Shown: positions 33,255 through 56,959 of the stretch, in pieces
How the letters are laid out: each line of letters starts with the position of its first letter
Numbering within the stretch: position 1 is the first letter of the stretch
Assembly: GCA_964106915.2 (NCBI GenBank)
Contig: OZ066914.1
Source: Podarcis gaigeae
Taxonomy: Eukaryota
Direction: 5' to 3' (one strand)
Length of the DNA: 64,000 bases
Program-made: the position numbers and the translations under genes
The notes under the pieces: model-generated
What the model saw: the letters and a program-made list of their open reading frames with translations, nothing else
The model's database searches: none
Told to the model about the DNA's origin: nothing

Positions 33255-33394
33255 NNNNNNNNNNNNNNNNNNNNNNNNNNNNNNNNNNNNNNNNNNNNNN
33301 NNNNNNNNNNNNNNNNNNNNNNNNNNNNNNNNNNNNNNNNNNNNNNNNNNNNNNNNNNNNNNNNNNNNNNNNNNNNNNNNNNNNNNNNNNNNNN
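33255..33394. other. Assembly gap (N run)
   Basis: 140 Ns. Confidence 1.
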
Positions 33395-35394
33395 GCTTTC
33401 TTTGGAGCACTTTTTCTAATATAACAAGCCTCCAAAGAAATGAAAGTTACACAATACTGCACATGCTCTATGACTCAGTGGCTAGACAAATGCATGCAGA
33501 GTCAGTACTTTAGTTTTTCAACAGAGAAAAAATAATAGTTTTCTGTTTGTCTATAGTACTCAACCCACTGGACTGTGGGGGGAAACCCATTCACATCCAG
33601 AGGTATTACTTCCATATATCACCTGAAGGGCAAGACCAACCTATTCCACTCCACTGCTATGTCACACAATCCCCAAACAAACAGGACACAAGCTTTAAGA
33701 TTCTGCTGAAATTAAATATTTAGGATGAATGCTGTGGTTTTTGCTCCTTTGTTTGAACTCTTGATTTCACAACTCTTCTTTATGTACTGAGTAATTACTT
33801 GTTCTGCTGCTGGAGCTGGTATCTTATCAACACCCCCTTGGCTATGGTACATAAACTAACATGCTCATTCTTAGGATCATTCCTTTTAGTGGGCTATTTA
33901 ATTGTGCACTAGCAGTTGGGAACTGTTGCAGAAGTTTTTGTATATGATAGATGCATTTCCTGTGCAAATTTGATTAGATTATTAAAGCAGAGTGATGACA
34001 ACAGAACAAAACAACTGGGGAAGAAAAGGAATCTAGGGGTTTTTTTGTTTTTTGTTTTTATTAAGGGTTTTCTTGTTTTACAGAGGTAAGTGTAATGCCT
34101 CGTATGTTTGTTAGTTAGCAAGGTCTATCTGAACATTTATACCCCAACTTTCTTCACATAGTTCACATTACTGTATTTGTCCATCAATTTGTCCCATTTC
34201 AACTTGGGACTTCTTACCATGTCCCAGGAAACAGACCAGAATCCCCCCCCCCCAATGGTGGGTCCAGTTTCTTCAACTTGTACTCTGCAACAGATAGCCC
34301 ATTTGGAAGACCTGACATTTTCAAGTCCAGAGACACAGTTAGGATAGACAGAGAAGAGAATGTACACTACCGAGTATTCAATTATCCCTATTCCAGCTCC
34401 AGGCAAATTCATTCAAGGATGTCAGCAAGGCAACTGGGACATTCTTAGTCCAAAGGCATTCCTTTTCAGAGGTAATACATCCACAAAGTAAGAAAGTACA
34501 TCAATCATATTGAGCATAGACACTCCAATGGGTACAAGTCTAGAATAGTACTGTGTGGAGTCTCCACTTAGAAGCAGCTTACATTCATGTGACCCAGTTT
34601 TCCTATAACTAACATCAGGCAAACACTGAAGCGCTAAAGCATCCCATAATTTCTCTGACATTTCATAACCTTACCAAAAGGGGTATCTGGCTATTGTATA
34701 AAGATGACTCAATTTATATATGCTGCTGCAGTTATTAAAGAATGTGATCATGTTGGCCACTGCCTCTAAACCTAGTTTCAGAGCCTGGAACTGTGTTATA
34801 GTGGTACATATTGAAGTTCAGGAGTTTACCATGACAACCTTCATAACCACACTTTAAAGGAGAATTCCAAAAAATTGATTTATTATAACTTTTCCCGCTT
34901 ACAGGCACTCCCTCTGAAACAGGAGCATACACAATATATGTACTGTGAACAGCCCTGTGATCTTCAGCTGAAGGGTGGTATATACATTTAATAATACATA
35001 GTAAAAAATTATTAGGATCAGCTGACAGTCATAGAATAGGATACTAGCAAACAGTGGTGCACAGGTGAGCACACTGGACGTTAGCTGAAATCTTGGTTCG
35101 TATCCCTAATTAGCCACAAAGGCTGGTGAGTTCACATGGCTGAAGACTAGCATATCTCACAGGGTTATTATTATGGAAATAAAGTGGGGTACTCGCATCC
35201 CGCCCTGAACTCAACTTGCTCCACCAGGTGATATCATTGCTCCTGCCAAAAAAATGTCCTACAACAATACTTCCCTGTGCTTCACCTCCACTATACCACT
35301 GCTGAAGTACTGGTCCCAGCTTATTAAATCTAGTTCTGAGAATATTACTTTAACTGCTCATTTAAAAACCTGTAACACATTTAGAAAACCGTTG

Positions 35395-35902
35395 AAGCCA
35401 TGGGCAACAGCAGCGCGGCGTATGCTCCAGCTGTGTGGGGCATGGAGAGAGCCCACTGCTCCTGGCTGGGTGTGAAAATGCTGCCTTGGCGGCATCCTGA
35501 CACGGTGTCACCCAGCTGCGGAGAGGGGTGGCAGTGCTGCTGCTGCCTCTCCTTTCTCTGCCCTGCCCTGGCAGACTTGACTCAGGAGTGGAGCTGCCGG
35601 CTGCGGCCTGGCCACTCATCAGGGAGCAAGTGTTGGGCAGCTGGAGGGGGAAGAGCACCCTCTGCATTTTGCCAGCCCCCGCCCGTACAAGAGTGTCTGC
35701 TCATCGGGGGGTGAGGCACAGATGCTCTTCACACTCTGCTCACCCCGCCCTTGCGCCAGCAGGGACAGGGAGGGTGCTGCTCTTAAACCTCCACACCCAG
35801 TTGTGCAATGGGGATCTCTACAGGGGCACCTGGTTCATGTCTCCCTCCCCACTGTGCACCTGGGGCAGCGGGCCCCCTGCCACCTCCCACGCTATTGCCA
35901 GT
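35395..35902. mobile_element. GC-rich insertion, probable non-autonomous hAT-like element
   Basis: Abrupt GC-rich block in AT-rich intron ending ...cacgctattgccagtg. The ORFs over it are low-complexity, and no TSD was established. Confidence 0.45.
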
Positions 35903-36164
35903 GATGAGCTGGAAATAAATTTGAATGGGAAACAATAATTTTAAAAACTTGTTTACCCCAAACTTTGGAAAGTGGATACTTTAACAGGAATATTTGAAAT
36001 GCTAGCTTTGTAGCTCTTGACTAATGACGAAAAAAATAAATAATATATTTTAAATAAAATATTAACAGAGTCCAAAATCATGAATTTTAAGATGCGTTAT
36101 TCAGTCACCACAGAAATCCATGCATCACAACAGCTCTTTTCAGTCAAGTTATAAATTTAAAATA

Positions 36165-36390
36165 CAGTGGTACCTCGGGTTACATATGCTTCAGGTTACA
36201 CACTCTGCTAACCCAGAAATATTACCTCAGGTTAAGAACTTTGCTTCAGGATGAGAACAGAAATCGTGCTCTGGCGGTGCGGCAGCAGCAGGAGGCCCCA
36301 TTAGCTAAAGTGGTGCTTCAGGTTAAGAACAGTTTCAGGTTAAGTACAGACCTCCGGAACGAATTAAGTACTTAACCTGAGGTACCACTG
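36165..36390 (+). mobile_element. Tigger/pogo-like MITE (226 bp)
   Basis: TIR cagtggtacctcgggtta / taacctgaggtaccactg, TA TSD, internal caggttaagaac repeats. Strand is given relative to the 48639 copy. Confidence 0.92.
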
Positions 36391-37719
36391 TAGCTCTAAA
36401 TGTTACTGCCACTTTTTTACGCTGGCTCACAAAAGGATACGGTTGAAGCAATAATGTTTTAAGACTAGTTCAAAACGAAAACATGACTCTGCTTCCTTTG
36501 TTGCTCCAGAAACTGAAGCCAAATCAGCTGCATGGAGAATGAAATGGAAGACAGCATCCTAAACCAAACTTGGATCTACTACATTGAGCCAGCAGACATA
36601 GGGTACAAGCGATATGCAGAAAAAAATTAAGGTTAAAGCTAAGAAAGTGAGAGAGAAAGGAAATGATTGGACTGAGTTCCATCACTATAGCTGAGGATGG
36701 GAAATTTGAATTTAATGTTGATGCTAGTAATGAATGAAAGCCAGGTCAAAGTTCCAATGGTCAGGTACAAGGGGGAATATGGGGTGGGGTGGGGGTGCAA
36801 GGGAAGAATCTGAGATACAGAACTCAGAAGAAGAAGTAGCAGAAAAATAAAATGAGAAACTGGGAGATGCTGATCAATATGGTTGACATCAAATCATCAA
36901 TACGAGGAAAAATAAAAAGCAAGATTTTTCAAATGCAACCAGATTGTAGTTCAAAAAAACAGCAAAAGAGATTCACCATTGCTGCCACCACAGCAGCAAT
37001 AGTGGGCAATGCAATCCTTGGAGGCCAAATTTGTTGCCCCTGCGGATTCTGCCATCCAAGGTGGTCGCCTCACCTTGCCTTATGGGTGGACCCCTCCCTG
37101 CTTGAATGCAACATAGGCTATTCTCATTTTGGCTAACAACCCAATTATGGCAAAGACATTCCTTTTATGATCTTCACTGATAATCATTGCCTAGAGGTTG
37201 ATGGTGGACACATTGATGAGTTGACTGTTGGAACCTTATACCAATTATCTAACCTTTGCAGTGGCTCCATTTAATCTTCAGGAATAATGTACTTGTTTTG
37301 ACATATGAATTGCTGTGCATGAGACTTGTACTTATTTCTCCCTCATGTCCTCTGCTGCTATGTCTGAGAAAAGACATATCAAAGTAGCCTTTGCAAAGCC
37401 TTTGCATTGGCTTTCATTTTCTACAGTTAAGTCAGTATTTGGGTAGGAGGCCAGGTTCTTTCTATGCTTCATATGTTCTTCAACCAGAATTTCGCTGGAC
37501 ATACTACTACCGTTGATGATACTGGAAATATCAAGAATGTTGTAAGGCCGGGATTAAAACAGTCATTGAACTACTTTCATAAAATAGATGATTTGGACTT
37601 GCTTTTTCTGAACTGCAGCAATCCATTGCTAAACTGCTTTTCAAACCAATGGGTGGATCAAAAGCAGTCTGTGATATAGAATCAGGTAGGTATTCATGTT
37701 GGTCTGACACAGTAGGAAA

Positions 37720-37720
<1 letters not shown>

Positions 37721-37759
<39 letters not shown>
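37721..37759. repeat. (TG)n microsatellite
   Basis: Direct reading. Confidence 0.95.
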
Positions 37760-37761
<2 letters not shown>

Positions 37762-37833
37762 TCCAGTAGCAACTTAGAGACCAACTACGTTTGTTCTTGG
37801 TATGAGCTTTCACACTTCTAAGATGCTACTGGA
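37762..37833. mobile_element. Collapsed Penelope-like inverted terminal remnant (same family as 46902)
   Basis: tccagtagca...agaccaacta..tttgttcttggtatgagctttc-acacttct...tgctactgga, with inverted ends and shared sequence with 46899-46960. Confidence 0.75.
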
Positions 37834-38921
37834 CAATTTTATTATTTGTTATATATATTTCTACTGTGATATAGAATGTTGGTCAGCTATTCAATGGCTC
37901 TTCCCATGTGAGCCTGAGCAGCTCTTTTGAGCCTAGTTTTATCAGATGCATAACTGCATCATACTGGTCTCTATACTACTGAACTCTCTGAGAATTAACA
38001 GGGCAGAAAGCAGAGTCCACAAAAGCTTAGGTGACTTAAAAGGAAATAGAAGGGATGCCAAGTGAGCCATCAGCAACTTAACCATGTGATAAACCCAGAG
38101 GCAACTCCAAAGCTGCTATGCCACTGCCTATGGAATCTGCCAAGGAACCAGATGCTCTTGCTAGAAAAAATATCTTCCATGGCTCGGCATCTGGATCTTT
38201 TGAGGAAGAACAGGATAAATTGCATTCACAATTGTATACATGTATTAAAGCACAACACACACTTTTTAAAGTTCATAATTGAATTAAATTACACATTCAC
38301 TGTTTCAAAATGAATATGATATGAAGTGGGGTGCGAATATGATGTAGCAAGTTTTAGGTTAGGGGGTTTTAAGTACACATTTTCTTTCATTTAACAGCTC
38401 ATTTGCACAGATGTTACCTGTTACAAATGTGTATATTATAAATGCCAGTGTTTCTATATTGAAAACCATATTGCAACAAAACCACGACCAACTTTTTAGG
38501 TCTCAGAAGGATTTTCTTGGCTAAATATAAATATTATCTTAATAAATTGAAAAGTTAATATACCTTTTAAAGAATAGAAATGTTATTGGCCAAACCCCCA
38601 GCTCATTAACACATGCCCTACTCAATTAATCTAAAAGACTTAATATCCTGATCGTTTATAGTATTCAACTTTAACTTAGCTCAAATATTAATGAGTGTCA
38701 TGGAATGAAACTGAATCTGAATAAGGCAGCCTATATACAGAGTGGATGGGAGGCTATTACAGTAGTTAAAATATTTCTAGACTATAGCAAGTAATATTTG
38801 CTAAACATGTTAACATTTTAATGGACAGGTTTTCACAGTTAATTTTCTCTCTCCATGCAATGTTATCCAAGGATGAGCTTGCGCTAAGTTCTAATAGATA
38901 CAGATACTTCTTCTCAGGAGT

Positions 38922-39042
38922 TCATAGATTCATAGAATCATAGAGTTGGAAGGGACCCTGAGCATCATCTAGTCCAACCCATATACGCAGGGATCAAACC
39001 TATAACCTTGGCATTATCAGCACCAGGCTCTAAGCTATCTGG
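38922..39042 (-). mobile_element. tRNA-Ile-like-derived SINE with CR1-type 3' tail
   Basis: Minus strand reads tagcttagagcctggtgctgataatgccaaggttataggtttgatccctg (tRNA-Ile-like), then ggttggactagatgatgctcagggtcccttccaactctatgattctatga (CR1 tail with 8-mer repeats). Confidence 0.78.
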
Positions 39043-41868
39043 TGGCACCCACTACTGAAATCGGTTTCTTCCCCCTGTACCTTCCCCGTGGAGTTTTCCC
39101 CAGACTTGACCCCCCCCCCCCCGCAACCCTCATAAACCCCTTGCACTCAAGAGTTGATTTCCATGTTTCACAGCCCTATCTACCTGCTCTCAACTTTGCC
39201 CTCTATAAACATTTTGCCATTATAGCATTTTTAAAAACCCATTTTTAACTAAGTATATTTATTGTATGGAAGGTAGATTTATGGCACAGTTCTATGCCAA
39301 CCACTTAAAAACTAAGTGTTAGTGGGGGTTTTACTGCCAAGTAAGTGTGCACCGTATTGCAGTCTTAATTCTTTTGCCAGTAATATAGAAAGGAAATGAG
39401 GTGGCCCTCACCTTTATAGAGTGGGGGCTATTAAATCTGTATCTTATTCAAGTCAATATGCAATACAAATAGTGTATAATCCTTATTAACATTAAATAAT
39501 ATTAATGGTAACAGTAATTATTAAGGTAACAATCCTTATTCCCAAAGGGTAATTACCTGTCTGACAGTTTTGCTACCATTAGCTGTCTGACAAGTTAGAA
39601 CAAGCACATTCAGTGGGTCTCTCAGTTATTTCTCATTTTACTAATAATTAACCAATAGTTAAATGGAAGAAAGCATGACTAAATATGTTAAATGCTGTTG
39701 CTTCCATTGTTAACATGTTAATCTACAGCCACTTGATGTAAAAATAAGAGTTGTTAAAAGAACTGAACTTGAACTTGCCCATGGAATATTTATATCTCTC
39801 TGTAGTTCTTTAATGAGTTATGTCCTTACATTTTTATGTCTATAGTTGGTCAGAGCACTACAAATCAATGTTTCTTTCCATCACTCCTACATTTGACTAT
39901 AATTTACAGCTCAGCAAGAAGACTCATGAAACAAGTGCCTATTTTACTTTGGCAAACTAATTCTAGCTAATCAAAGCTTTCCAGCAAAACAACTCAGCAT
40001 GAAACTCTGCAAGGAAAATATGCAGAGAACAAAGCTTTTTGTCAAACAACACATCTCAAGATGTAAACACATATGTCTCTTATAGGAAATTTTATCGCTT
40101 CCACATTAATCGGCACACAAAAGGAGTATTCTTGTCGCAGACCTGGTGCAACTGGGGAGCCATCGTCACTGGAAACAAGAGCCTGATTAGGTTCCCACAC
40201 AGATATGAATAGACTTTCCTTTTTTTAGTGCAATGCCGCTTTTCTTATTTCTTAAGAACAGACTGGCAATTGTAACTGTTCAGAAAAAAAGCTCCAAACA
40301 ACTCTCCTGAATTGTCTTGGAACTTGGACATTTATTTCTTCATTTCTGGCTTCTTTTGTTGTCACAACCCAATAACATCTATTATCCCATCTGGTTGTCC
40401 TCTTCTGGAAAGCCTGAGTTAATCCACAGCTGTAAAGATGAACAAGAACTTAGCAGGCTCCGAGCACACTAAGGTCTCTTATCTGCTAATGAAGTCGGCA
40501 GTCTGCGGGACAGATGTTAAAAGGATCTGTAAAATAAGTCAGTGACAAAGATCCTGACCTCTGCTGGGGAATTTTTTTTATTATTCCGGAAAAGGACATA
40601 ATTGCATGGAAAAGCATTAACAATTAGAGGAACCATATCAGTGCTTTATGGATTCTGATTTCTTGCCTCAGCTTTCAAAAGAAACAGACGGTCAGTTGTT
40701 GCTATAGGGAACAGATAATGCACTCTGGTGCAAATATTAGTAGCCACAGATAATTTGTCATGGACTCCAAAGAGATGGTGCAACTGCTTCTCTTTGCTGG
40801 CTTCTTGAATGCTGGAGTATCAACAATGTAGTGTTAATTGTTGCAGTATGTGCTAGCGGTATTGAAAAGGCAGTGCTAATTTACAATGCCAGTCATAGTA
40901 TTTCCGTTTTTTTAAAAAAAAAATAGCATGGTGGGAAACGCAACATTTTCTTTAAATGTTGCTAACAGTTCTTTTAACATTCTTGCATTTAAACATCAAA
41001 CAATCTCTGACTGTTCCAGGTCTCAAAATTTTGTTTTTTGGATGCTGCCTTTAAAAGAAAACTAAAAAAAAACTATAAAAAAAACTAATAATGATTTCTC
41101 TGGCCATTAAAAAAAAAAAAATCACATGAAAAAACAGTTTTTACAAACATGTAAATTCTTTTGCTCCGGACATTAGGCAAAAGTGTGCTACTAAGCCACT
41201 TCACCTCTGGAACTGTCTTTTGCTATTCACATTTTTTTGTCCTTCTACCCATGTAATGCGGTCCATTCATAATGTGCAGATATGGGTACGGGCCCCTCCC
41301 TTCTACCGTGTCAATTATGACTGGAATGAAGTTGGCATTTTCTGGGAGCACCCATTCATGCAGACGACTGGTTAGCACGATCCCTTTCTTTCATTTTCTT
41401 TTCGCAAAATCAGACAAGTCAGATGTCTGCATGGAGCGCCTTCATACAAGTCAGTCACTTCATTATCTAAGCTGGAGAAGGGGAATCAGGACTAAGCCAC
41501 CTAATGCATAGGTTCACTCATAACTCTGTTCTGTTTCTACATAAATTGTGATTTTTCTTAGATTTTCTCTCAAAATATGCATTTCTGAATGTATTTCATC
41601 TCAAAACACAACGGTGGTACAAGCAATAACAACATAAAGATGGGGACTACATAGCTTAAGAAGTGCCTAGTTCAGAGACCAGAGTGCAAGAGTCCAGTGA
41701 GCAAAGGACAACAGAGGGATTTTATTTTTATTTTTAAGGATTGGTATAGGATTATCTGTTATTGAATTTGTTTTAATATGACTGAAATGAGCTTCACAGC
41801 ATGAAAAATATATAGAAACTATTGCCTTGATACAAAGGCCTGCAGATTGTATGATACAAAGAAAAGAA

Positions 41869-41914
<46 letters not shown>
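41869..41914. repeat. (ATT)n microsatellite
   Basis: Direct reading. Confidence 0.95.
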
Positions 41915-41916
<2 letters not shown>

Positions 41917-42596
41917 AGGACCCTTCGTAACAGATAGCACTTGACAGGGTTACATAGGCAGTCCTGCATAATTGGTTTTCCTCATTCATTTCAGTGGAGG
42001 GCAGTTGTTCTTGTACAATGGGTTTTATGTGCCTGGAGCTGACTAAAGTGGGCTTGTGAGTGGAGGAGCATGTATGTGCATCAGGACCTCTGCACCCACA
42101 GCCCCTGTAGGGGTGACAAGAAAATCCCCTTTGTGGTTTACATACATAGGGTGCTCTTCAACAGAGGGCTTGACACTTATTTTTCTAAACTGCAACTTTG
42201 ACATAGTAAATTGAGGGGTATTGTGCTCCCTGAGAACAGCCAAATTACATAGGGCAGATTCAATTATGATGTTTAAATATAACTTCCTTGAATTACCTGT
42301 TCACAACCAGTTTACCATAAAATCGAAAGCAAAGCCACAAAAGTACACTTGGATAAACCACAAATAGCTGCCAGCCGCTGCGGCAATTGAAAGAATTTGG
42401 CACTTGGCCGTTGCCTCTACATACTAGCATTTGCTTCCCATCTGAAATAAAGCAATTGTTTTATTAGTGTTATTAAATTTCAGCAAATTTCTAAGTATAA
42501 TGTAACCCATCACCCTATAATGGCATATATTTACCGTAACAGCATCAGAGCTGACAAAAAGTTTACAAAATGGGAATTTACATAAATTTGAAATGA

Positions 42597-42646
<50 letters not shown>
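42597..42646. repeat. (GT)n(GA)n compound microsatellite
   Basis: Direct reading. Confidence 0.95.
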
Positions 42647-42650
<4 letters not shown>

Positions 42651-43112
42651 GCAGTTTCTAAGATTTTATCAGCACTCTGAAGAAATCAAAGAACAGAAGC
42701 CTTAAAGGGTTACATGGATAGCAGTTAGAGGCATGTAACCTGGAACTGGCTCCACTCCATGTTGTGCTTTACAGAACATAGTAAATGGGCTGCAGCTTTT
42801 GCCACATTTGAGAAACTGATCAACCTGCTTCTCACTCAAGAGATTGGGGGTCAGGCAAGGACCCCCCATTCTGAGCAGAGCACACAGGGAAGAAAACATA
42901 TTCCTTTCAGAGGTCCTTAAATATGTAGGCTTGTCCATTGTTATTTATTTATTTTAAAATATTTCTAGGTCATCTTTATGGACAATAATGGGCAAGGAGT
43001 TCCAGAGTCACCACGGAGAAAGCTCTCTCCCTTATAGTCACCTACACTGACCTAGAAGACAGGCACACCAAGAGGGCCTTCTTTGTTGATCACTGTCTGG
43101 AAGATAGGAACC

Positions 43113-43640
43113 TCCCTGTTCTGGACAGGTTTCCACTCCCTCTAAAGGAGCAGGGACATAGCTTTGTCACTAAATGTCAAAGTGATCTCTGTGACTAGGA
43201 GTGCCTTTTACCAGCTTCAACTGGTACACCAGCTACGGCTGCACCTGGATTGAGATCACCTGGCCATTGTGGTCCCAAACATTGGTAACCTTGATACTAG
43301 ATTACCACAATGTGATCTATGAGGAGTTTCCCTTGGGCCTAGTCTGGAAAGACCAGCTGGTGCAAAATGCAGCAGTTAGACTGCTGATTGGAGTTGATGG
43401 CAAACAGCATTTGACACCTCTCCTAAAATATCTGTACTGGCTGTACATATGCTACTAGGTCATTTTCAGGGTTCTTGGGCCCAGCACTGACTACACTCTT
43501 ATATCCCATCTTAATTACTGAGAGGATCCAGAGGAGTGCTGTTAGTTGTCCCGCATGTTACAGACACCCAACTGGCCTCAACTAGAGGTTGGACATTTAG
43601 TGTTGCAGATCCCATGCTGTGCAACACCTTCCTAGCAGGG
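43113..43640 (+). mobile_element. L2-clade LINE ORF2 fragment; an opposite-orientation L2 3' fragment lies adjacent at about 42940-43090
   Basis: Encodes LVT..LDYHNVIY..PLGLVWKDQLVQNAAVRLL...HLTPLLKYLYWL, the L2 LDYCN/QNAAARL/ITP.L..LHWL motifs. Confidence 0.85.
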
Positions 43641-43965
43641 AAGTATTGAGCTGAGGGGCATTAAGTAGCAGGCTATATGCAAGATCCTTCTAATCCCTGT
43701 ATGCAATGTTAAAATATAAAACAGATTAACTTCCTGTGTTGAGGTGATCACCTGGGTGCTGGGCAATTAAGAAAACGAAGAAAAAGGGGTTCTGTGCAAG
43801 TTGGCAAATTGGTGGAGCCCCTCCCTCAAACCAGAGATAGTTAGAACAAACCCTGAGTTTAGAGTTCAAAGGGGCTGTGTTGTGACCCAGAAGTAAAGCA
43901 GCGAGCTTCAGAGCTTGCCGGAGCAACCTTTGAGAGCAATGCTTGATTTCTATTTGAATCCAAGG

Positions 43966-44448
43966 CAGTGGCGGAGGAAGGGGGCAGGGGCGGCCCACTC
44001 CGGGTGGCATCTCTGAGGGGGATGACAAGAAGGCACCCCACGGGGGGCTCACCTCGCCGTTCCTGGGCATGGCGGTGCAAGCCACTGCCATCGTACCACC
44101 GCAGCCGCATGCGGAGGATCCTCCGCTCATGGCTGCACCTTCTGCAGCCATCCGTACAGCGCTTGAGTGGTGCTGTTGGCAAACCACCCAGCGGCGCATG
44201 CGCTGTACGTACGGCACATGCGCACCGCCGCTACGTACATGCATTCGCGCTGCCGCTTGAGCACCGTACGGATGGCAGTGGGATCCCTCCACCGCCACTG
44301 CAGCCACAAGCAGAGTATCCTGCTGTATGTACGGTACATGCATGCATGGTACATAGCGGAGTGCACACATATGGTGTGCATGCATGCACCACCAGGAAGT
44401 TTGCCCCGCCCCACACACCGGGGGCCAGTTCTTCTTCCTTCACCCCTG
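43966..44448. mobile_element. Non-autonomous hAT element (483 bp), CpG-rich
   Basis: Imperfect TIR cagtggcggaggaag / cttccttcacccctg. Perfect 8-bp TSD atccaagg at 43958-43965 and 44449-44456. Confidence 0.88.
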
Positions 44449-44886
44449 ATCCAAGGCTGCAGCTATGGAAGAAACAAGACCCTTTTGGGGTGTTAATGCT
44501 ACAAAGCCCTCCATTGTAGGTTCAGGTTGTTATAGATGTGTAAATAAGTCTCCTAAAGACAACACAGTCTCTACTGTGCCCCATTTCAAAAAGAAAAGGG
44601 AAACCTAGGTAAGCATCTGGAACCGTTGGAATCTTCTACTGCTCAAAGACTGGGATGGTGTGAAACAGTATTATGATATAGTGGTGGGTGGGTGTGTAAG
44701 CCAAGGGTTCCATGGAACAGAAAAAATTGTGTGAAGCCACTCAAAGAAGAGAGATGAACTTAGAGTTCACACGGAGCTCAAAGTTTCTGAAGTCTGAGCA
44801 GCATGCAGTTACACATGGAAAGAGGCTGACCTCTTCTGTAATATAAATACAGAACAATATATATAGCAACATTCCCTCTCCATATA

Positions 44887-44895
<9 letters not shown>

Positions 44896-44945
<50 letters not shown>
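44896..44945. repeat. (TA)n microsatellite
   Basis: Direct reading. Confidence 0.95.
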
Positions 44946-44947
<2 letters not shown>

Positions 44948-46901
44948 ACTCCTGATGTCCAGAAAGCAATATTTCTTCTGTGTCCGAGTCAAAACAGTAA
45001 ATTGGGAGTAGAAAGGAGAGAGAATTTTGCTATATTGAAAATGGAGCTCCTAAACTCAGAAGTGCAGCTCCCTCATGAAACCATCTTGAGGGTAAGGCAA
45101 AAACTCACACTGACTCTGTGGCTGCGCCTCACCTCATTTCACTCATATTTTTTTCAACAGACTGAGTGTTGCTCTGCTGAGAATATGATGCTAAACCACT
45201 TTTCCTGTCGAGTTTTTTAAACAGGGCCTCTGAGAAAGGGTTTGATACAACTCAATGACTGAAGTAATACCTTTGTCCATCTGAGCATTAAATGGCCCAT
45301 TGAAATACAGCTTAGCTTGAAGGAATTTTTCAGTAAATGGTGGTTTCTAATCCCCCCCCCCAACTCTTCTCCCAGCTGACTAGATTCTGGCTTCAAAACT
45401 GCAGTTCAATCACTTTCAGCTGCCTCTCAGGTCAGGCCTTTAGCCAGTGTTAATTAAATATAACCCCTTTAGAATACTAGAGGTTAACCGAGAGCAACAA
45501 ATTGGTCTTCAATACAGAATCTAGCACTATTCAAACAAAAGAGATTTGTGTGAGAGGCCTTCTTTGCTTATATTGTCCTTAATGCATTAAATATATAAGG
45601 GGGAGAACAAAGGATTATTTCTTTTCAGTTTGAACTGGTAAAAGCATTAAAACATATTTCCTGCTTTGCATATGATTTGTCTTTAAAAAATACACACCAT
45701 AAAAGAAAAGTGCTGCAGCAGATAGTTTTGCAACTACAGCAGCACCATTCCAATTTGATAAAGTGAAACTGTAAAAAAAGAAAATCAATGCACCAGACTG
45801 ACACTTTTCTTTCCTTATATTCCTCCCTGCAGTTGTTAGAAGTTTACATTTTACGTATTTCATTTGTTTTGGTCTCTAGTCAGCATAGACTTTCATATAC
45901 CTTCAACTGTACATAGTTAGAATTAGCTGTCTGTTCCATACACTTGGACTCAACGCCACGGCTGAAAACTAACTGAAATTGTCTTTCTTTCTCTTCCTAA
46001 TGATTTCAAATGAGTATTGTTGGCTTTTCAGAATGAGTATTTGTTTAGCGCTCTGTTAAGAAAATTAAATAAAAAGGGGGTGGGTTTTTTTGTTTTTATA
46101 ATTGTCCATAGCTATCTGAAGATTAAGGTAAGCTGAAAGGTTTTATTTTAAATGCACAGCAATTAGCCTTGTCTCCATGAACATGACTTTACTGTAAATA
46201 CTCCACCTTGACTATCCCTTTGTCCCAAGTTTCCTTGAAGAAAGCAACCAAGCGATAATTCAGCATTATTGCTGCTTCAGTGCCCTAATCGCTTAAAGAG
46301 CAGCAAAGACCCTATTGCTCACAGCCACAAGGCTACTACAGTCTCCTGGCCTAAGGCAGGCTTCACAACCCAGCAGCATCCAGATGTCAGGAGAAATATC
46401 CAGGTCCTGATGCAGCACGCCGCTCCATTCCAGTATGGCCTAACAGCTGTTTCAGCTGCTGGCATTCAACCTGCTGAATACACCGAGACCGTGGCAGACT
46501 AGGGAATAGAAATAGGGTGGAACTGAAATACTGAAATCGCCCCATTTCATGTGGGTAGCACAAAAACACCAAAAAGTTCTACGCAAAATGCTTACTAACT
46601 TTCATTCCTTCATATATGTATGTATTCTGTATTTTTAATCCTTAGGTCTGATTGCTTGACCTGCCTACTTAGGAAAGCGATCCTGTTGCAAGGATATGAT
46701 GTGGAGGCCAACAGACTGACCAGCAAACATGCAGAATCTCCAGCAATATTACCCATCACCATTGCTTTTAATTAAAAGGAATCCGTTTTCACCAACTCTC
46801 AGCATGTTATCTTGTTAATCAAGCATGGCAAACTTCCTTTGCCTGAGTTACACAAAGAGATGGAGGACTGCAAAAACGGAAAAGAATACACAGCACATAG
46901 A

Positions 46902-47149
46902 CCAACTAAGTTAGTTCTTGGTATGAGCTTTTGTGTGCATGCACACTTCTTCAGATACTTCTTCAGATCTGAAGAAGTCAACTTAGTTCTTGGTATGAGC
47001 TTTCGTGTGCATGCACACTTCTTCAGATACTTCTTCAGATCTGAAGAAGTGTGCATGCACACGAAAGCTCATACCAAGAACTAACTTAGTTGGTCTGGAA
47101 GGAATTTTTTGTTTTGACTATGGCAGACCAACATGGCTACCTATCTGTA
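46902..47149. mobile_element. Penelope-like retroelement terminal (pLTR) remnant with tandem and inverted copies
   Basis: 12-bp TSD acagcacataga at 46890-46901 and 47150-47161. It contains a 72-bp tandem duplication, an inverted copy, and the PLE-type end gcagaccaacatggctacc. Confidence 0.82.
46993..47030 (-). ncRNA. Minimal type I hammerhead ribozyme motif (PLE type), core intact
   Basis: Minus strand reads GTAT-CTGAAGA-A-GTGTG CATG CACAC-GAAA-GC-TC|ATAC. This gives CUGANGA and GAAA cores, stem II, stem I (GTAT/ATAC), palindromic AGCT helix III and an NUH site. Confidence 0.72.
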
Positions 47150-48638
47150 ACAGCACATAGAGTTTGCAAAGCTCATAACAAGATGGTGTTCTGTAGACGA
47201 TAAACATTAAAACTATGCTGAACATATGTCTGTCTTAGTTCGTGAAGCTATTTTAAGAGCTTTAAAATTGCTAAGCACCTTTTCATCCCCTAAAGGAACA
47301 AAGAAAGAAAAAAAAGAAAAGTCTGTAATGGCATGAGAAAAGGAGGGGTCTAAAATATATCTGGGTAGGAAGTCAACCATTCTTTACACTGGCTCAGTTA
47401 GTGACCTTAGACAAGCCACCAATTTCCACAAATCTTTTATAAAATGGGCACAGTAATAACAATACTTATGCACCTTGCATAGGAGTTGCAACGAGGCCTA
47501 ATACCTCGCTCGAAAAGTGCTGGATGAGAGTTGCTACCGTAAATGAGTAGGAAGTGATCATTATTTGTATTTGTATCATAAATCCCGTTAAAGTTTGTAA
47601 TCTTGTCCTTTGCTTTTTCACATGAGCCTTGACATTTTAACAAAATTCTTCTTGAAGGTTAAAATAAACACAGCCTCATACCAAGTGCTTGCTTATATTC
47701 ACACCTTGTTATTGTTGCCTCTGCCTTCTCTCTCCTCCCTGCATTTCCCCCCCTCCTTCTGAGCTGAGATCATTCCAATCATTAAGTTCCTTGGGGCATA
47801 AATGCTTTTTATACTTAGGCAACTCTGTAAAAAGCAGACTCCAACTTTATTTTCCAACATAAACTTTAAAAAAGAGAAGGTGCGTGTAGGGGAAGTACTT
47901 GGGAGGGTTGTAGCTGGGGAGAGGGAGATAACCCTCTTGTATATCCCCATCTTCATTATAATCCTTCAGACTTTATATGTTCTTGGATGGATTCACCCTT
48001 AGAAGGACTTGACTGCTTCTCTGCCTGGTGTTGCTTTTCCAGCCATGCTGCTGAGGCCCCAATCCACTCCCCAGTTATGAGCTCAGATCTCAGGTCATAA
48101 CACCCATGATCCTAACCCAGCCTTGATTTTTTTTTTAATTTAGTTTCAAAGTAGAATAAAAGAAGGGAAATTTCAAAACAGATAAAAACAAAGAAAGGGG
48201 CAGGGGGGAAGGGATTAAGTCTTTTAAAATTATAACGCATACAAAATCCAAAAGAGAAATCTGCACGCGTGTGTGCCAGTGTCCAATCCTAGTTCATAAT
48301 ATAGTTTGAAATTATTGGGTTATTTTCCATTTGCAGGAACTGAAGGACAGATAGGGATATTATAAATATATGCTGGCTCTACTGATCAGGAGAAGCTTTA
48401 TCACTCAGCTGGGGCACTTCTGGGGAAAAGAGCCATTCTAGCATCCCATTCAATTAACATATCATTAAAAATAGCTTTTCCCCACTGAGGTTGCTGTGTT
48501 ACCTGATAAGTAAACATATTATATGTAAAGTGTATACTATGTATGTATAGATTGTGTAAAAGAGTCTGTGTATAAAACAAGAATAAAAATCCTGAAACAC
48601 TTTGGTTGGAAACTAGAAAATTGAATATTATAGCTATA

Positions 48639-48863
48639 CAGTGGTACCTCTGGGTTAAGAACTTAATTCGTTCTGGAGGTCCGTTCTTAACCTGAAACTG
48701 TTCTTAACCTGAGGTACCACTTTAGGTAATGCGGCCACCCACTGCCGCCGTGCTGCCATCATGCGATTTCTGTTCTCATCCTGAAGCAGTTCTTAACCCG
48801 AGGTACTATTTCTGGGTTAATGGAGTCTGTAACCTGAGGTGTCTGTAACCCGAGGTACCACTG
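48639..48863 (-). mobile_element. Tigger/pogo-like MITE, same family as 36165-36390, opposite orientation
   Basis: TIR cagtggtacctc / gaggtaccactg, TA TSD. Internal gatttctgttctcatcctgaagca is the reverse complement of the 36165 copy. Confidence 0.92.
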
Positions 48864-50382
48864 TAGTCTTCAGCTGCATCAAAGCTTTCAAATAATTCCA
48901 GTGTGCAAGTTATTTAACAGACGTTGCCTATAGAACATACACAGTATATGCTTGTCTAGTCAGAGGTAAACCCCACAAAGTTCAATGGGGCTTACTCCTA
49001 GATAAGTTTACATAGGATTGCAGCAACAGAACTGTTAGATATTTTCAAAACAGTAAAAGTCACACCTAAACATTGTCTAAGCTTTTTAGATTAAAATTTT
49101 CACTTCTGCTTATTAGAAACCTCAATGAATTTCAACCATCAATGACGGAGTATAGATACAAGTGGTGAAATCTGTTTCTAGGGACTTTCTCTCTTGAAAC
49201 ATTCATTTCAGGGAGATCTGAATGAAAGTATGCCTTTGAAAGTTGTACCCTGCTATTAGTACCTGTTTGTTTGTTTGTTTGTTTGTTACAATTAAGCACT
49301 GTATAAATTTTATTAAATAAGTAAAATAGATTAAAAAAACTTCTAAGTACATTAAAAACATATAAAATTGGAATTACCAAAAGACTTCTGGAGACACATC
49401 ACATATATCATAATGGAAATCACAGGGGTAACGTTGGGATAAAGTCCCACGTTGATGGTATTTAAGTGGATTGAGGCAGGTATTTCAAAGGGGACAAAAT
49501 CTCTTATATGGAATTTAATAATGGCAAAAATGAGCATCTTTGTGGATATGGCAATGGCAGAATTGACATTCTCATTCGTGTTTTTCTTTCTCCCCCCCCC
49601 CTTTTCATAGCACCCCCCTCCAAATTTCTTGCAGTTGTGGCAGCTGAACTCACTTCAGTGTTCACTTATAGAGGCAACCATTTCCCCTCCAGAGTACCTG
49701 TGCTCACCACTTTGTTCTTGTACATTCCATGAACATGCCAGAACCAGAACCAGTGTAGTTCCCTCTCCCCCCAAGTAGTAGTGATTTCCTCCCCAGAATA
49801 CCCTGGGATGCAATGTCTGGGACTTTCGGGGCGGGGGGAGGAGAAGCCCCAGAGGGAGCCACCAAAATTAGCTTCGATGCCACTAGCTGTGGCATCAACA
49901 ATTGTTAAAACAGGAAATAAAAGAAAAATGAACATGAATACCTAAACAAATATAAGCCTTTTGCATAAATAATTACATGAATGTGATTTTTTCCTGATCA
50001 TTTTAATAATGAAATTTCATGGCATTGAGACAGAATAAAATGTATTGCAGGCACCTATTAAGCACCATTAATTAAAGAAAACTCAAAACAGGAGTCAACA
50101 CTAACTAAATTACTGCACCCTCATTCCAGAAGCTGATTAAAGAAAAAAGTTTACACATTTAAACTATATTACTTCCCCACATAATCCTGGTAACTGTAGT
50201 GTATATGCAGCATCAATTGCTATTTCTTGCTCATGCTTCTATTCCTCACCATCCCTTTGGCCCTTACCTTTTTCCTCGCCATATCCTTCTTCTTCGGGTT
50301 TATTGTAGGCAGAGAATGGTGCTGGGCAAAACACAGGTTGCCTTTAGGTGACCCTCTCTGGAAGCTTGCATATCATGCACAT

Positions 50383-50518
50383 CAGGCATCCCCAAACTCA
50401 GCCCTCCAGCTGTTTTGGGACTACAACTCCCATCATTCCTAGCTAACAGGACCAGTGGTCAGGGATGATGGGAATTGTAGTCCCAAAACAGCTGGAGGGC
50501 CGAGTTTGGGGATGCCTG
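50383..50518. mobile_element. Hairpin hAT MITE (136 bp), same core as 15743
   Basis: TIR caggcatccccaaactc / gagtttggggatgcctg. TSD atgcacat / atgcactt (7 of 8 match). Confidence 0.9.
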
Positions 50519-51448
50519 ATGCACTTTATACTGATGTACTTTCTTCTTCCACTCTTCCAGGAAGCTGAAACCAATGTTCTGACCCAAAGTTAGTCTCGCC
50601 TAATTCCCACTAATATTAATGAGACCTAAAGTACTCACAGTTAAATAATCCCATGGATTTCACTGGGATTTAAGCACAACTCATTTGCTTTGGATTGAGG
50701 CTAGGGACTCTATAGTGGCATACTGCCTTTCCAAAATACCCAAAAGTATGTAAATTGCACCCCATATCTATCTGTAATAGTCATTGAATTTGGCAGACTG
50801 ATTCATGATTGCATTTTGCAGAGTTAATTTTGATGAAAAAATTCACTGTAACAGATCCATGATAAGCAAATGCATTTGGCTAAAATAACAAAACAACACT
50901 ACAAGAAAAATAAGGCCATTGAGAGCTTAGTAGTCTTTTGAGTGCTAGCTGGAAAGATTCTATGAGGCTAATGAAGACAGAATCTCTGCCTGTAACAATA
51001 TTAAGTTTATTTTCTCTAGTGATTCGAAGAAGTGAGCAATCTGTCACTAATACACTGAGTTAAATTACTTGTCTTGTTGGAATTCCTGCTGACAGTCAGT
51101 CACTCACAGCGCTGACCTAAACATCTACCTGCTGACAAACAAATTGCAGTGTCAAACTTTGAAAAGGTAACTAGCTGGTTTTAATTTTGATTGGTCTTAC
51201 TTGAATCTCTTGTGCATTCTTCCCTTTTCCTCCTCCACCCACCCTCTCCCCTCTCTCAAAATCCCCATTCTTTACTAGGCTGAAAATGAAAATAAAGGAA
51301 ACTCCTGTTTAGCATTTGTGGGGGAAATTATTATTGCTGGCTGCATCAGAGAAATGTTATGTCAGATAAAACTGTTAAAGTGTGTCTAAGCAACATTAAG
51401 AGTGGCAGGCCCGCCAGTGACTGACTGGGTGAGTGAACACATTACCCA

Positions 51449-51612
51449 NNNNNNNNNNNNNNNNNNNNNNNNNNNNNNNNNNNNNNNNNNNNNNNNNNNN
51501 NNNNNNNNNNNNNNNNNNNNNNNNNNNNNNNNNNNNNNNNNNNNNNNNNNNNNNNNNNNNNNNNNNNNNNNNNNNNNNNNNNNNNNNNNNNNNNNNNNNN
51601 NNNNNNNNNNNN
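51449..51612. other. Assembly gap (N run)
   Basis: 164 Ns. Confidence 1.
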
Positions 51613-52669
51613 CTGTGTGATATTTAACTGCTGTATTTGCTGAAGAGGAGCAGGCATAATTTCATAAGGCAAGAAGCCGGCAGAGCACTTTACACGGTGA
51701 AGGACTGAAGCGGGACCAAATAGCTCTCATTTTCGAAAGTAAGCCCACTGCGCAGCATCCTCCCAAACGTAAACTGTTTTAAGCTTACAGAAGAATACAA
51801 AGAACTCCATAAACTAAGGCAGGCCACAAAACTAACTTTTTCATTGGAGACAGGATGGGGGATGGGAGGGAAAGAAGCAAAGAATATGTCTCAGACATGC
51901 CACTTCTTGAGAATACTATTTCTTCATAAAAGGCAACACTTAACATCTTAGCTATTTCAGGGACATATTTACATGACTGTCACATCACAAGAGCCTCTTT
52001 CCTGCACATTCTTCTTGACTTTACTGTAAGGGCCAGCACAAAAATAGCCGAGGAAAGCAAATGTCAACCCCAGTCCTGAAATTTATATGTGTGAGAGAAT
52101 TAGAATAAGTAGAAATGTAATATATTGTTTACTGTACTGAGTGCCCTCTGTTCTCTAAAGGTCAAAAGCATTGTAACCTTAGAGTTACAGTTTCTGATTG
52201 TTCCCAGGGTTAAATACATTATCAGAATTAATGGTTCAAACCCCCTCAACCTTCAGATATATGAGTATTCATGCCTCCATCTGCCAAACTGTTCAACTAA
52301 AAATAGCATTCTTTGGCCTTCATTCTGCTAATACTGCACCCCTGAGGCAGGCTCTGCAATGCTTCAGCAGTACTTTGGATCTTCACCCAGTGGTATAACA
52401 AAAGGTCATTACTTTGTGTAAGAAAAGGGGGGCTGGGGGAGGAGAAGAGCAACAGACTAAAGAAGCATACTGCATGGGTTTTTGTTGTTGTTGTTTAATT
52501 TAGTTGATGATAAAAACTTCAGTCTCCCAGCACACAGCTGCAACCATAGCTAAGACTTGCCAAGCCTCATTAATGTTATACGCGATAAACTTTGAAGGAC
52601 AAACTATACAAGAAACATCAGGGGAAAGGTAGGAACCATAGGTTTGCTTGCTTGCTCTCACTTCTGTTA

Positions 52670-52700
<31 letters not shown>

Positions 52701-52718
52701 TCTCTCCCTCTCTCTCTC
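52670..52718. repeat. (CT)n microsatellite
   Basis: Direct reading. Confidence 0.9.
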
Positions 52719-52879
52719 TTCAGAAGATCACATTGTCTAGGAATAACTCCAGCTAACATAATTGCAATGCATTATCACTTTCAATAATTTACCAGTGGTT
52801 GTCATACAACTGTACCATTTCTTTATTAACAAATTTTGTGTGTGTGTGTATTCTGGAACATTACTACTACTACTACTAA

Positions 52880-53000
52880 TGTTATTATTTATACCCCACC
52901 CATCTGGCTGGGCTTCCCCAGCCACTCTGGGCAGCTTACAGAATATATTAAAAATTGTAAAACATCAGGCATAAAAATTTTCCAATACAGGGCTGCCTTA
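52880..53000 (-). mobile_element. LINE (L2-like) 3' end with simple-repeat tail; related ends at about 30011-30058 and 7160-7205
   Basis: ttatttatacccc.cccatctggctggg.ttccccagccactctgggc..ctt recurs next to (TAT/TAC)n tails. Confidence 0.6.
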
Positions 53001-53592
53001 CTGGTTTTGCTATGGGGAATAGAAGGAGAAATGATAGGAAGGCTTCACAAAAGATTTCATACAGTGAAGCCTTCTAGGACAGATGTGTGTCTACTGAGCC
53101 GCCATGGGATTTCCCAGGAACAGGGTTGCTATGAGTCCACTGAAAGGCTGGGAAACAATCCCTGAAGACTTTCATTCAGCTGCACACATGTACCCAGAGT
53201 AAAACTAATATAAATTCTACAAATTTAAAAAGTTTGTTTTTTATATAAAAAAAATACAGAGTGGTAAAAAAATAAGAGGGACTAGTATAGGAGGACAAAA
53301 AGAAGAGAGGAAATACTGAATAATAGCACAAGCTGTATCACTGCTCCTTCTCTATCACCCTCATAAAAAACTGCCAATATGTATTAAGGAGGGTTGATTT
53401 AAACCATTATTTGTAAGCATGGTATGGTCCTTTCATAACCTCTTATAAAAATGCACTGCTGCATCTGGGAAAGTATCTCATGTCAGAAAGGTAGCTAGAA
53501 TGGAATTGTGCAAAGTTGTACACACACCATGATTTTTCCACACATTTCATATAAACATGGCTTCTGCAAGGACAAGCCATGTCTAACAAATG

Positions 53593-54679
53593 GACTTGGA
53601 CTTTCAAAAATAAGACTCCTGAGTAAGCTTAACAGTCATGGAATATGAGAAGTGGCTCAGGAATTGGTTAAGCAGAGAGTAGGACTAAATGCAGAGGTCT
53701 CCAAATGGAAGGATGTAGAAAAGTGGAATTCCCCAAGGATTGGTATTGGGACCTGGGCATTGAAACGTGTTCATAAATGGGATGTACAGTGAGGTAGCCA
53801 AGACTGCTGATGATGCTAAATTGTTCAGCATTGTTAAAACAAAAAGAGATTGAAAACAGCTCCAAAAGGACCTCTCCAAACTGAGTAAAATGGCAAGGGC
53901 AATTCAATGTAGACAAGTGTAAAGTGATGCATGTTCATATATACACTCATGGGTCTGATCTGGCAGTGACTGACCAGGAAAGAGACCTTGGGATCCTAGT
54001 GAATAGCTCAATGAAAGTGTTGACCCAGTGTGTGGCAGCTGTGTAAAAGACAAATTCCATGCTAGGGATCACTAGTAAATGAATATCTTAATATACAAAT
54101 CTGTGGGGTGACCACATACTGTGTACAGTTCACATCACATCAAAATGAATATTGTAGAGTGTAAAAGGTTAAGAAAATGGCAACCAAATTGATGAAGGGG
54201 ATAGAACAACTCACCTGGGATGTAAGGTTGCAGCACTTGGAACTCTTAGTATAGGGGAAAGAAGAGTATGAGGTGGCGAGATAGAAATTTTTAAATTATG
54301 CAAGGCATGGAGAAAGTTTTTCTCCCCCGCTCATAACATTAGAATTCGTGGGGATCCAATGAAGCTGAATGTTGGAAGATTCAGGAGAGACAAGTACCTT
54401 TCGTATGCAACTCTCACACACAAAAGCCAGTGATGGGCTAAAAGAAGACTGGACAAATTCATGAAGGACAAGGATCTCAGTGGCTACTAGCCATGATGCC
54501 TGTTTGCTGTCTCCACAGTCGGAGGCAGTATGTTTTGAATACAGGACAAGGAAAGACTGTTTTTGTAGTCATGTCCTGCTTGCAGGTTTCCCCACAACCA
54601 AGCATCTGGTTGGCCACAGGGAGGACACTAGACTAGATGGCTATTGGCCTAACTTATCAGCTTCTTCTTATGTTCTTAA
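53593..54679 (+). mobile_element. 5'-truncated CR1 LINE (degenerate RT domain and 3' UTR)
   Basis: Degenerate motifs LDFQK, SGIPQG.VLGP, FIN, SEVAK.ADD.KLF, FNVDKCKVMH and ERDLG are readable with frameshifts. Ends in the ttcttatgttctta CR1 tail. Confidence 0.9.
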
Positions 54680-55371
54680 GCTCTTTGATTCTGAGAGTGA
54701 ATGTGAAAACAACTATCAATGGTTCAGGAACACTTATAAAATGGTGTTTTTAAAAAGCTGATATTTTGCCATCTCTAAAGATCCTAAGGTTTGAGAGACA
54801 GATTACGTAAGAGTCTCAATCAGGAATTTCACTATTGGGTTTGGCAGAACTTCTAGAAAATGATCCAGATAATAGTGTTCTGAAGTACTTGTTGAAGTGC
54901 AAGCCTTTAGTTATTATCTGATCTCTTTAGCTTCTAAAAAAGCAATTAGCTTATCTCTGAAATATGTAGGACACAGCCTCATGAGTAAGCCAACACATCA
55001 TGTAAGTGATTTGTTTATTGGTAGTGTCATCTGTCTGTCAATGGAAATGTAAAATTTAAACAGAAACTTCACAAGCACTGTGATAAAAAAATCTTTCAAC
55101 AAAAAAATTGAAATGTGGGGGCAAACGTAAGATATATACTCTCATCCACTTTACTACTATGAGAACATGAAAGTAATTGTGTATCATGGATTGGTTGGAC
55201 ACAGAGAAATGGTGGGAGAAACTAGCTGGGGAACCAGCTTTGAGATGAGTCAGGCTGGTAAAGAGGCACAGGTGTCTCTACCTCTAGCTGCAACAAGCTC
55301 CCCTATCTCAAACACCACTATCTCAACTTAAGCTAACAAGTTATCCAATTTCTTCAGTGGCATCTCCTCAA

Positions 55372-55497
55372 CATAGGTGGGCAGTCTCTATTGGGAGAGC
55401 CACAGTTCCCATCATCGCTGACAACTGTCCATGTGGATTGAAGCTTTTGGAAGTTGTAGACCAACAACAGCTGGAGGGCAGCACATAGTTACCCTGA
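55372..55497. mobile_element. Degenerate hairpin hAT MITE copy
   Basis: cacagttcccatcatcgctgac ... gaagttgtagaccaacaacagctggagggc matches the family core. Confidence 0.6.
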
Positions 55498-56674
55498 CAT
55501 AGGCAGCCTGCTTCTTCTTTTCAGCTCTTATTTACCATATATTGTGGCCAAGTGGGGTGAGGGGGGCAAGTTCTAGGCACTGTTGTTGAAGAGTTTCCTG
55601 CTATGTGGCCTATTTGGCTGGCCATCCACATATGTAGCCTTATGTGACATCACCTGAAGAAGAACAGCTGACTATTAACAGGATTTTAAAATCCCCTTGC
55701 ACCCCCCAGAATGACTCTTTCGTTGTGGCATAAATTACCCTGTTGCCTGCAAAAACTAATATCTGAATAAGCCTATGTGCCTCTGAGGTACCACAGCAAT
55801 CTTTTTCTGCTAGAGACTTAACACTACTACTCTTTTGGCTGGTAATAGGTATAAGATATATTTGTCACATCATTTAAATGTCCATAAGGTAAACCTTTAG
55901 CGCGATGACTAAACACCCCCCCCCCCTTGTAAGCTTTTGACTGTTGCTTCATTATTTGACACTATTGTGCCTTTTCTTGGGGAATATTAAAAAGCTATAT
56001 AATAAATTGGAGTGTAAATCATTTTCACACAACATTTAGTTCCCCCTATGACAAAAATAAATAAATGACCTAGCAAGGGACCAAACTCAGACTCCTGATG
56101 GCTGCTGGCATCCAACCAACTTAACGCATGGAAAGGCTGAGATTCCATAAATACAGAAGCTGCAAGTGTTCAGTTTATGAAACAGTCATCACCAAGCCCC
56201 AAAGAAAAAATATAATGCATTTATTCAGACACCCACTATGAGCAAAAACAGCTAAACAGGGCACACTTAGAAGTAGCTTAAGAAACATAAATGCTATTAA
56301 TATATCTTCCAGTAAATAGTTACATACTTTTTCTTCCCCAGTCTCAAAGCAGAGAACATGTACAGTACAGAGTACAGAGCTTAGCACAAGTTAAGCACTT
56401 TTTAAAATGACTTTGGTTTTAATAGAAGAATCAAATAATACTTATTTGACCAAAATCAATTGGATTAAAAAGTGCTTAATTTAAGCAGGATCCTGCCCAA
56501 AATGTATTAACTTCATTGTTATAAAATACGAAGTTGGCTGTCTTTCCCAGCATCAAGGCTGACAGCATGCTGTTCTGTTTGCAGCATGTTAAGTACATAA
56601 GGTGTTAATCCTTCTGGGGCTGTGCTTAAAAAATTATTTAACATTCAAGCCATTACTTAGCATACAGCTGGTTA

Positions 56675-56959
<285 letters not shown>

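Follow-up and report, generated by a model that had tools for sequence, protein, structure and literature searches.

A young head-to-head Penelope-like insertion with three, likely silent, hammerhead motifs in a SOX6 intron of Podarcis gaigeae

An intron of SOX6 in Podarcis gaigeae holds a short insert with three hammerhead-ribozyme motifs, which raises the question of whether the intron cuts itself. An earlier note on the 64,000-nt stretch of DNA analysed here (hereafter, the window) had proposed that it could do so co-transcriptionally. If true, a self-cleaving SOX6 intron would be a new route for a transposon to tune a developmental transcription factor, comparable to the CPEB3 ribozyme. 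Given observations on family membership, copy number, architecture, absence from two relatives and one lost catalytic residue (G12A), we conclude that a Penelope-like element (PLE) very probably inserted at this locus recently, in 5'-truncated, head-to-head form and with one arm partly duplicated, and that the hammerheads of the insert are likely kept silent in a hairpin.

The insert and its three hammerhead copies

A minus-strand exon peptide matched proteins named SOX-6 at up to 98% identity, and a lacertid SOX-6 protein aligned to five minus-strand exons in the window (tblastn); four exon frames gave no informative Pfam result. Two of the motif copies, A and B, had been placed on the SOX6 sense strand; because the SOX6 exons map to the minus strand, this is confirmed. 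The host intron is about 24 kb long, and the insert lies about 10 kb after one mapped exon and about 14 kb before the next. Direct inspection of the sequence agreed with all the coordinates proposed earlier for the insert, its target site duplication (TSD) and the three motifs. The parts are as follows.

32620..56731, minus strand: host SOX6 intron (boundaries approximate, from tblastn)
46890..46901, plus strand: left TSD, 12 bp (sequence comparison)
46899..46958, minus strand: outer, tail-less inverted arm, holding copy A (46921-46958)
46957..46978, no strand: duplicated turn-around junction, the hairpin linking A and B
46980..47030, minus strand: inner inverted arm, holding copy B (46993-47030)
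47029..47050, no strand: head-to-head junction, palindromic, with self-templated filler
47039..47149, plus strand: tailed arm, a 5'-truncated pLTR end in the element's own sense, with copy C and the 3' tail
47150..47161, plus strand: right TSD (empty site bridged in sequencing runs X10 and X15)

The insert measures 248 nt between the two copies of the 12-bp TSD (ACAGCACATAGA; 46890-46901 and 47150-47161), and the last 3 nt of the left TSD are a microhomology overlap with the end of the inverted arm. A and B sit in a 71-nt direct repeat (72-nt spacing, 97% identical), and the turn-around junction between them is a perfect 22-nt palindrome. Copy C forms inverted arm pairs with A (58 nt, 98% complementary) and with B (49 nt, 98% complementary, 10 nt apart). 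At about 47095-47096 the tailed arm also lacks 13 nt, a deletion that the earlier note did not include; it is unique in the genome, and with this single match we rejected it as a subfamily marker. The tail-less arm ends (46899-46902) at the same element position as this private deletion, suggesting that the two may stem from one event at insertion. Just beyond the right TSD, 15 of 16 letters at 47168-47183 (plus strand) match the family sequence around the cut site; this stretch may be an older remnant, target homology or chance.

Exactly three motif copies were found in the window and none in 100 shuffles (28-nt motif, ≤3 mismatches), and a relaxed core pattern found B and C where 0.09 matches are expected. 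On the minus strand, copy B reads GUAU-CUGAAGA-A-GUGUGCAUGCACAC-GAAA-GC-UC/AUAC, with the slash marking the predicted cut site at 46997/46996. Its cores and stem I match those of the family, in keeping with the minimal type I anatomy of Penelope-like hammerheads that had been recognised earlier. C3-A9, G12-A14, A15.1-U16.1, H17 and helix II are intact in B and C. Copy A, with its cleavage site at 46925/46924, fails at one of these positions: the T at 46932 (plus strand) is a G12A change at a CpG, confirming the loss of its catalytic G12. The family's 4-bp helix I is retained in A and B, and copy C (core at 47041-47074, plus strand, inverted relative to A and B) keeps two of the four pairs, so its description as having intact cores and a weak stem I also holds. 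One of the two same-strand copies thus has an intact core, where a double hammerhead takes two.

In the search with hammerhead models that the earlier note had called for, the Rfam covariance models returned no hammerhead among the one match at gathering score in the window, nor among the 29 matches at E ≤ 10 in 46500-47600. Rfam hammerhead models expect a real helix III. Most of the 29 matches were to miRNA-hairpin models; these reflect the hairpin, and all fall below the gathering score. Elsewhere in the window, a decayed match to RF00005 (tRNA; 37.6 bits) at 8403-8475 on the minus strand is probably a SINE head or a tRNA pseudogene.

The source is an abundant Penelope-like family

The tailed arm (47039-47149) belongs to a large repeat family, of which it represents the 3' end, and counts covering the 1.51-Gb genome gave 11,151 exact copies of the 34-nt motif. 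Longer copies extend further upstream, where they hold a frame with a GIY-YIG domain, the peptide of which had at least 150 matches at 95-100% identity (5,476 first-look candidates). All four long copies that were fetched have frames of 706-813 aa followed by the hammerhead motif. In the 813-aa frame, the one copy run against Pfam, RVT_1 (E 4.8e-12) and GIY-YIG (E 2.4e-5) domains were detected, and its stop lies 185 nt upstream of the motif. The Penelope-like origin put forward earlier is therefore borne out by frames with a reverse transcriptase (RT) plus, at the C terminus, a GIY-YIG endonuclease (EN) directly upstream of the same pLTR, and by this domain content the source family is an EN+ PLE. 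The family frame has a linker, CNKPRCQLC (CxxxxCxxC), between RT and EN. A zinc-finger-like CX2-5CxxC linker at this position is described as a Neptune trait in sections of PMC8557442, which also give such a linker for Nematis; from the linker and the reptile host, we label the family putatively Neptune-type. Literature searches found no paper on the hammerheads of this lizard PLE family, an absence that is not proof.

Apart from the junctions and the 13-nt deletion, the arms differ from another family copy (L002) by single CpG-type changes. The comparison among organisms used eight sequencing runs, all as contigs, with a 31-letter bar for bridging. Single contigs from two other organisms (runs X10 and X15) bridge the empty site, and the insert is absent in these two relatives. 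Because the arms are near-identical to L002 and the empty site is bridged in both runs, the insert is judged to be young. Contigs of X1, X3, X4 and X6 join 24-26 nt of element tail to the right flank, under the 31-letter bar, and the left flank is uncovered in X1-X4, X6 and X7; the joins suggest that the insert is present in X1, X3, X4 and X6. The empty-site contigs have 10 letters before the TSD where the window has 5 (46885-46889), and a small indel may have accompanied the insertion there.

The arrangement recurs across the genome

Genome-wide, 1,583 loci have head-to-head copies with ≤30 nt between the 5' ends of their cores, and close direct tandem copies form 63 junctions at 42 loci (by manual count of the tandem list). 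An inverted family piece was present at 14 of the first 17 of these 42 loci, the SOX6 locus included. Four other loci (L080, L084, L085 and L089) share the SOX6 layout of two tandem copies plus one inverted, and in each the two tandem cores are intact. An inverted 5'-truncated copy and a one-sided tail are typical of PLEs, as described in parts of PMC8557442 and PMC3846280. The SOX6 arrangement is thus a recurring by-product of insertion and not a special feature; the motifs were correctly identified, and the insert, although real, is an ordinary fold-back stump of a PLE that has undergone a partial duplication. The layout is also seen at L145 (G000:C1:5570058-5570182), among the first 100 exact motif matches, where two tandem exact motifs with a 42-nt period are accompanied by one inverted exact motif.

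How the insert likely formed

We surveyed the 5' and 3' ends of 114 motif copies in the first 6.7 Mb of contig C1, comprising the first 100 exact matches and their neighbours with ≤4 mismatches. Conditioned on copies that hold the core, 66 of the 114 (58%) start 0-6 nt upstream of it; the 7-13 nt and 14-20 nt intervals hold 6 and 5 starts, and the remaining 37 lie further upstream. The starts peak at -4 (21 copies) and -6 (17 copies). A TATA-like TATATAG starts at -37, i.e., 31-33 nt before these peaks, and a non-element G precedes 13 of the 21 copies that start at -4 (p 0.007 against one third). This pile-up would fit run-off at a capped RNA 5' end, and the likely start of the element RNA is placed 4-6 nt upstream of the hammerhead core. 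Less probably, the pile-up may mark a splice acceptor, TTTCAG at -5, for which D. virilis Penelope offers an analogue (PMC4209133) and under which one might place the T that precedes 13 of the 17 copies with the -6 boundary; no shared upstream exon sequence was seen among the surveyed 5' ends. In one copy (L074), the region from 37 to 4 nt upstream of the core holds the TATA-like box and an initiator-like TCAGT that is also a good splice acceptor.

The 3' ends of the same copies are bimodal (45 at +84 to +92 and 43 at +123 to +128). One long and one short arm are combined in 23 of 26 head-to-head pairs. For an anole PLE, priming at two internal sites, with both DNA strands being extended, is reported in PMC11167929; by analogy, the bimodal ends and the long/short pairs match such a mechanism. 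The fixed end of the short arm favours two priming sites, with priming from both strands or snap-back self-priming as possible routes. Each arm of the SOX6 insert ends 2-4 nt upstream of the core, and self-templated filler links the two. Reverse transcription would likely have primed at about +88 and +127 from the core, one site per nicked DNA strand, and cDNA synthesis would then have run off the RNA 5' end, the two cDNA ends being joined back to back with the filler. Re-priming during joining, or a later slip, may have repeated the arm and junction once, giving A and B. As the G12A change is seen in A only, it would have arisen after the duplication, when CpG decay hit this copy.

Junctions at the ribozyme cut site

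Against 15,842 matches of a downstream anchor, a non-family base directly precedes 164 copies that begin at the predicted cut, 72 that begin one base upstream and 78 one base downstream. Classification of 70 of the 164, 40 of the 72 and 40 of the 78 rows gave 43, 21 and 17 true junctions, respectively, or about 100, 38 and 33 as genome-wide estimates. Junctions to non-element flank numbered 14, 2 and 5 by script, and 13, 2 and 4 after two rows were reassigned by eye. The excess at the cut over the neighbouring bases is 2-3-fold and rests on two control positions; a GATAC microhomology shared with the inverted arm accounts for about 10 of the 43 junctions, some of the rows represent duplicated loci or both arms of a single event, and AT-rich microhomology shifts boundaries towards the cut by a roughly estimated 1.2-fold. 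In two insertions (L243/L244 and L257/L258), both arms start at the cut.

The excess is a weak hint of rare in vivo cleavage, touching about 0.6% of copies, and has no bearing on the SOX6 copy; within its native element, the motif may be active. We rejected the idea that the ribozyme cut is where most short copies begin, as only this small share does so, compared with the 58% starting 0-6 nt before the core. A bolder reading is that the family hammerhead cuts in living lizard cells and that its tandem arrays (dozens of private arrays of 55-85 nt, two-plus-one-inverted loci included) are natural on/off dimer variants, the SOX6 locus being antisense-locked and openable at 46925/46924; we regard this as a tentative possibility, on balance doubtful. 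The family has value in its own right as a very young and abundant PLE. Its stumps show where the RNA likely starts, mark two priming sites and may include rare templates cut by the ribozyme, and the stump patterns bear on the in vivo role of PLE hammerheads.

Predicted folding argues against cleavage in SOX6

Helix III of these hammerheads is the palindrome AGCU, and in a dimer each core pairs with, and cuts, the site of the other copy. The proposed cut at 46997/46996 therefore depends on the G12A core of A. On the sense strand B comes before A, and only the site of A (46925/46924) can be served by an intact core, that of B. According to PMC2553840, G12A slows cleavage more than 500-fold in minimal and about 10^6-fold in full-length hammerheads.

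Forcing the competent fold (B core, A site) costs +52 kcal/mol in the insert and +15 kcal/mol in A+B alone, by nearest-neighbour energies, which take no account of tertiary contacts, Mg2+, proteins or kinetics. The same method also gives +11 to +27 kcal/mol for interior pairs of all-intact tandem arrays, so the absolute energies overstate the barrier, and its meaningful part would be the roughly 37 kcal/mol added by C. For every transcript prefix ending from 47010 to 46850, B is predicted to pair with antisense C at 89-95%, and its predicted pairing with A stays at 0.00. With 130 nt more of downstream intron, antisense C is predicted to pair with B at 79% and with A at 15%; capture of C by A would free B in a minority of molecules, yet bury the site of A. 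In A+B alone, the minimum free energy (MFE) structure instead joins the two palindromic helix II segments to one another and to the linker hairpin. The hairpin is predicted to be very stable on both strands (z -14.9 and -15.6).

Antisense C, transcribed before B, would thus capture B in a 49-bp helix before A exists, and A, its core crippled, would be left without a partner. Because the SOX6 pre-mRNA is predicted to fold the hammerheads into a 49-58 bp hairpin, they are likely silent, and the dimer fold is computed to be inaccessible in the host transcript. The suspicion in the earlier note that a competing fold may silence the insert is borne out by the predicted pairing of B, whereas its main proposal, co-transcriptional self-cleavage of the intron, is unsupported given the G12A change in A, the folding cost, the B-C pairing and the recurrence of the layout as a by-product.

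Published work bears on both sides. Single minimal PLE hammerheads showed no detectable cleavage and dimers little (PMC4209133), cleavage by an anole PLE hammerhead needs the element's own protein (PMC11167929), and slow intronic ribozymes had no effect on splicing (Fong et al. 2009, cited in PMC10919898). Against silence, the title of Lunse et al. 2017 (cited in PMC6765202) states that such variants cleave as dimers. Taken with the modelled folds, any cleavage of the SOX6 intron by the insert appears improbable.

Alternative readings of the locus

Three other readings were weighed against a silent stump. Self-cleavage by A and B at the site of B (46997/46996), as originally proposed, can point to the perfect family cores and site of B on the sense strand, but the dimer would use the G12A core, and a B monomer would have to close helix III as one A-U pair over 2 nt, in a class of single minimal hammerheads without detectable activity in PMC4209133; with B also about 95% paired to antisense C in the predicted folds, we give this reading almost no credence. 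Somewhat better, and still very unlikely, is a low-level double-hammerhead cut at the site of A (46925/46924) by the core of B, once the B-C helix has been opened, whether by a helicase, through A-to-I editing or by the protein of the element itself. The pairing is topologically possible, with an intact B core, an AGCU/AGCU helix III and a 4-bp stem I, and the MFE structure of A+B alone does pair the 5' stem I strand of B with the 3' strand of A; protein-assisted cleavage is known for the anole PLE hammerhead (PMC11167929), and the excess of junctions at the family cut site points the same way. It would nevertheless have to overcome +52 kcal/mol in context, and antisense C sequesters whichever arm it pairs with while both A and B are required; even A+B alone is held by the cross-paired helix II palindromes and the linker hairpin, and dimers of minimal hammerheads cleave poorly in vitro (PMC4209133).

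A reading of similarly slight probability has the insert act on SOX6 RNA as double-stranded RNA, with the 49-58 bp hairpin either edited by ADAR or cropped by Microprocessor, and not as a ribozyme. The stability of the hairpin on both strands and its sub-threshold matches to many miRNA-precursor models speak for it, but at least 1,583 such hairpins exist in the genome, the insert is absent in two relatives, and the nearest mapped exons are about 10 and 14 kb away. ADAR-type editing of the hairpin is plausible; any consequence for SOX6 is only putative. The silent fold-back stump remains the preferred reading.

Relation to known systems

The insert and its family share much with EN+ PLE insertions of the Neptune clade as portrayed in parts of PMC8557442 and PMC3846280, i.e., an RT and C-terminal GIY-YIG frame, the CxxxxCxxC linker and a pLTR hammerhead, as well as head-to-head arms, a palindromic junction, a tail on one arm and a 12-bp TSD. 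These sources describe an inverted 5'-truncated pLTR, a one-sided tail of 30-40 bp and a TSD. The SOX6 arms differ in being stumps of about 60-110 nt, with the tail-less arm partly duplicated and ending about 30 nt earlier than usual, and with a private 13-nt deletion in the tailed arm. At the level of the ribozyme, the metazoan PLE minimal type I hammerheads (Cervera and De la Pena 2014, PMC4209133) have the same CUGANGA and GAAA cores, 4-bp helix I, extra nucleotide between 9 and 10.1, G10.1-C11.1 pair, long helix II and AGCU for helix III. Helix II of the SOX6 copies is, in contrast, a perfect 14-nt palindrome, so that copies can cross-pair, and the insert combines one G12A copy with an attached antisense copy.

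The CPEB3 intronic HDV-like ribozyme (PMC10919898) lies at the same depth of about 10 kb in a large intron of a regulatory gene, and has a measured half-life of 2-3 min and an mRNA effect. The SOX6 motif, in contrast, belongs to a repeat copy restricted to its lineage; it depends on a partner and is predicted to be masked, and CPEB3-like tuning of SOX6 by this insert is unlikely.

Non-LTR retrozymes (bioRxiv 10.64898/2026.07.22.740005) are likewise short tandem hammerhead units from a PLE pLTR. The SOX6 insert differs in having two units only, a junction private to the locus and an attached inverted arm, and, where retrozymes are recognised by two consecutive complete motifs, its copy A carries G12A. 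Other loci hold short hammerhead arrays of 4-8 units with a 70-80 nt period, each with its own junction, that resemble nascent retrozymes.

G000:C9:4357329-4357865: hammerhead array L099, 8 units, 7 without a full stem I
C33:7650729-7651086: hammerhead array
C17:82008859-82009148: hammerhead array
C1:9792010-9792232: hammerhead array L077
C2:108532586-108532798: hammerhead array L086

Two further tandem loci, L104 (G000:C15:15249919) and L106 (G000:C15:63380011), have intact cores and no inverted arm detected within 900 nt, and would suit a dimer-cleavage assay better than the SOX6 locus does.
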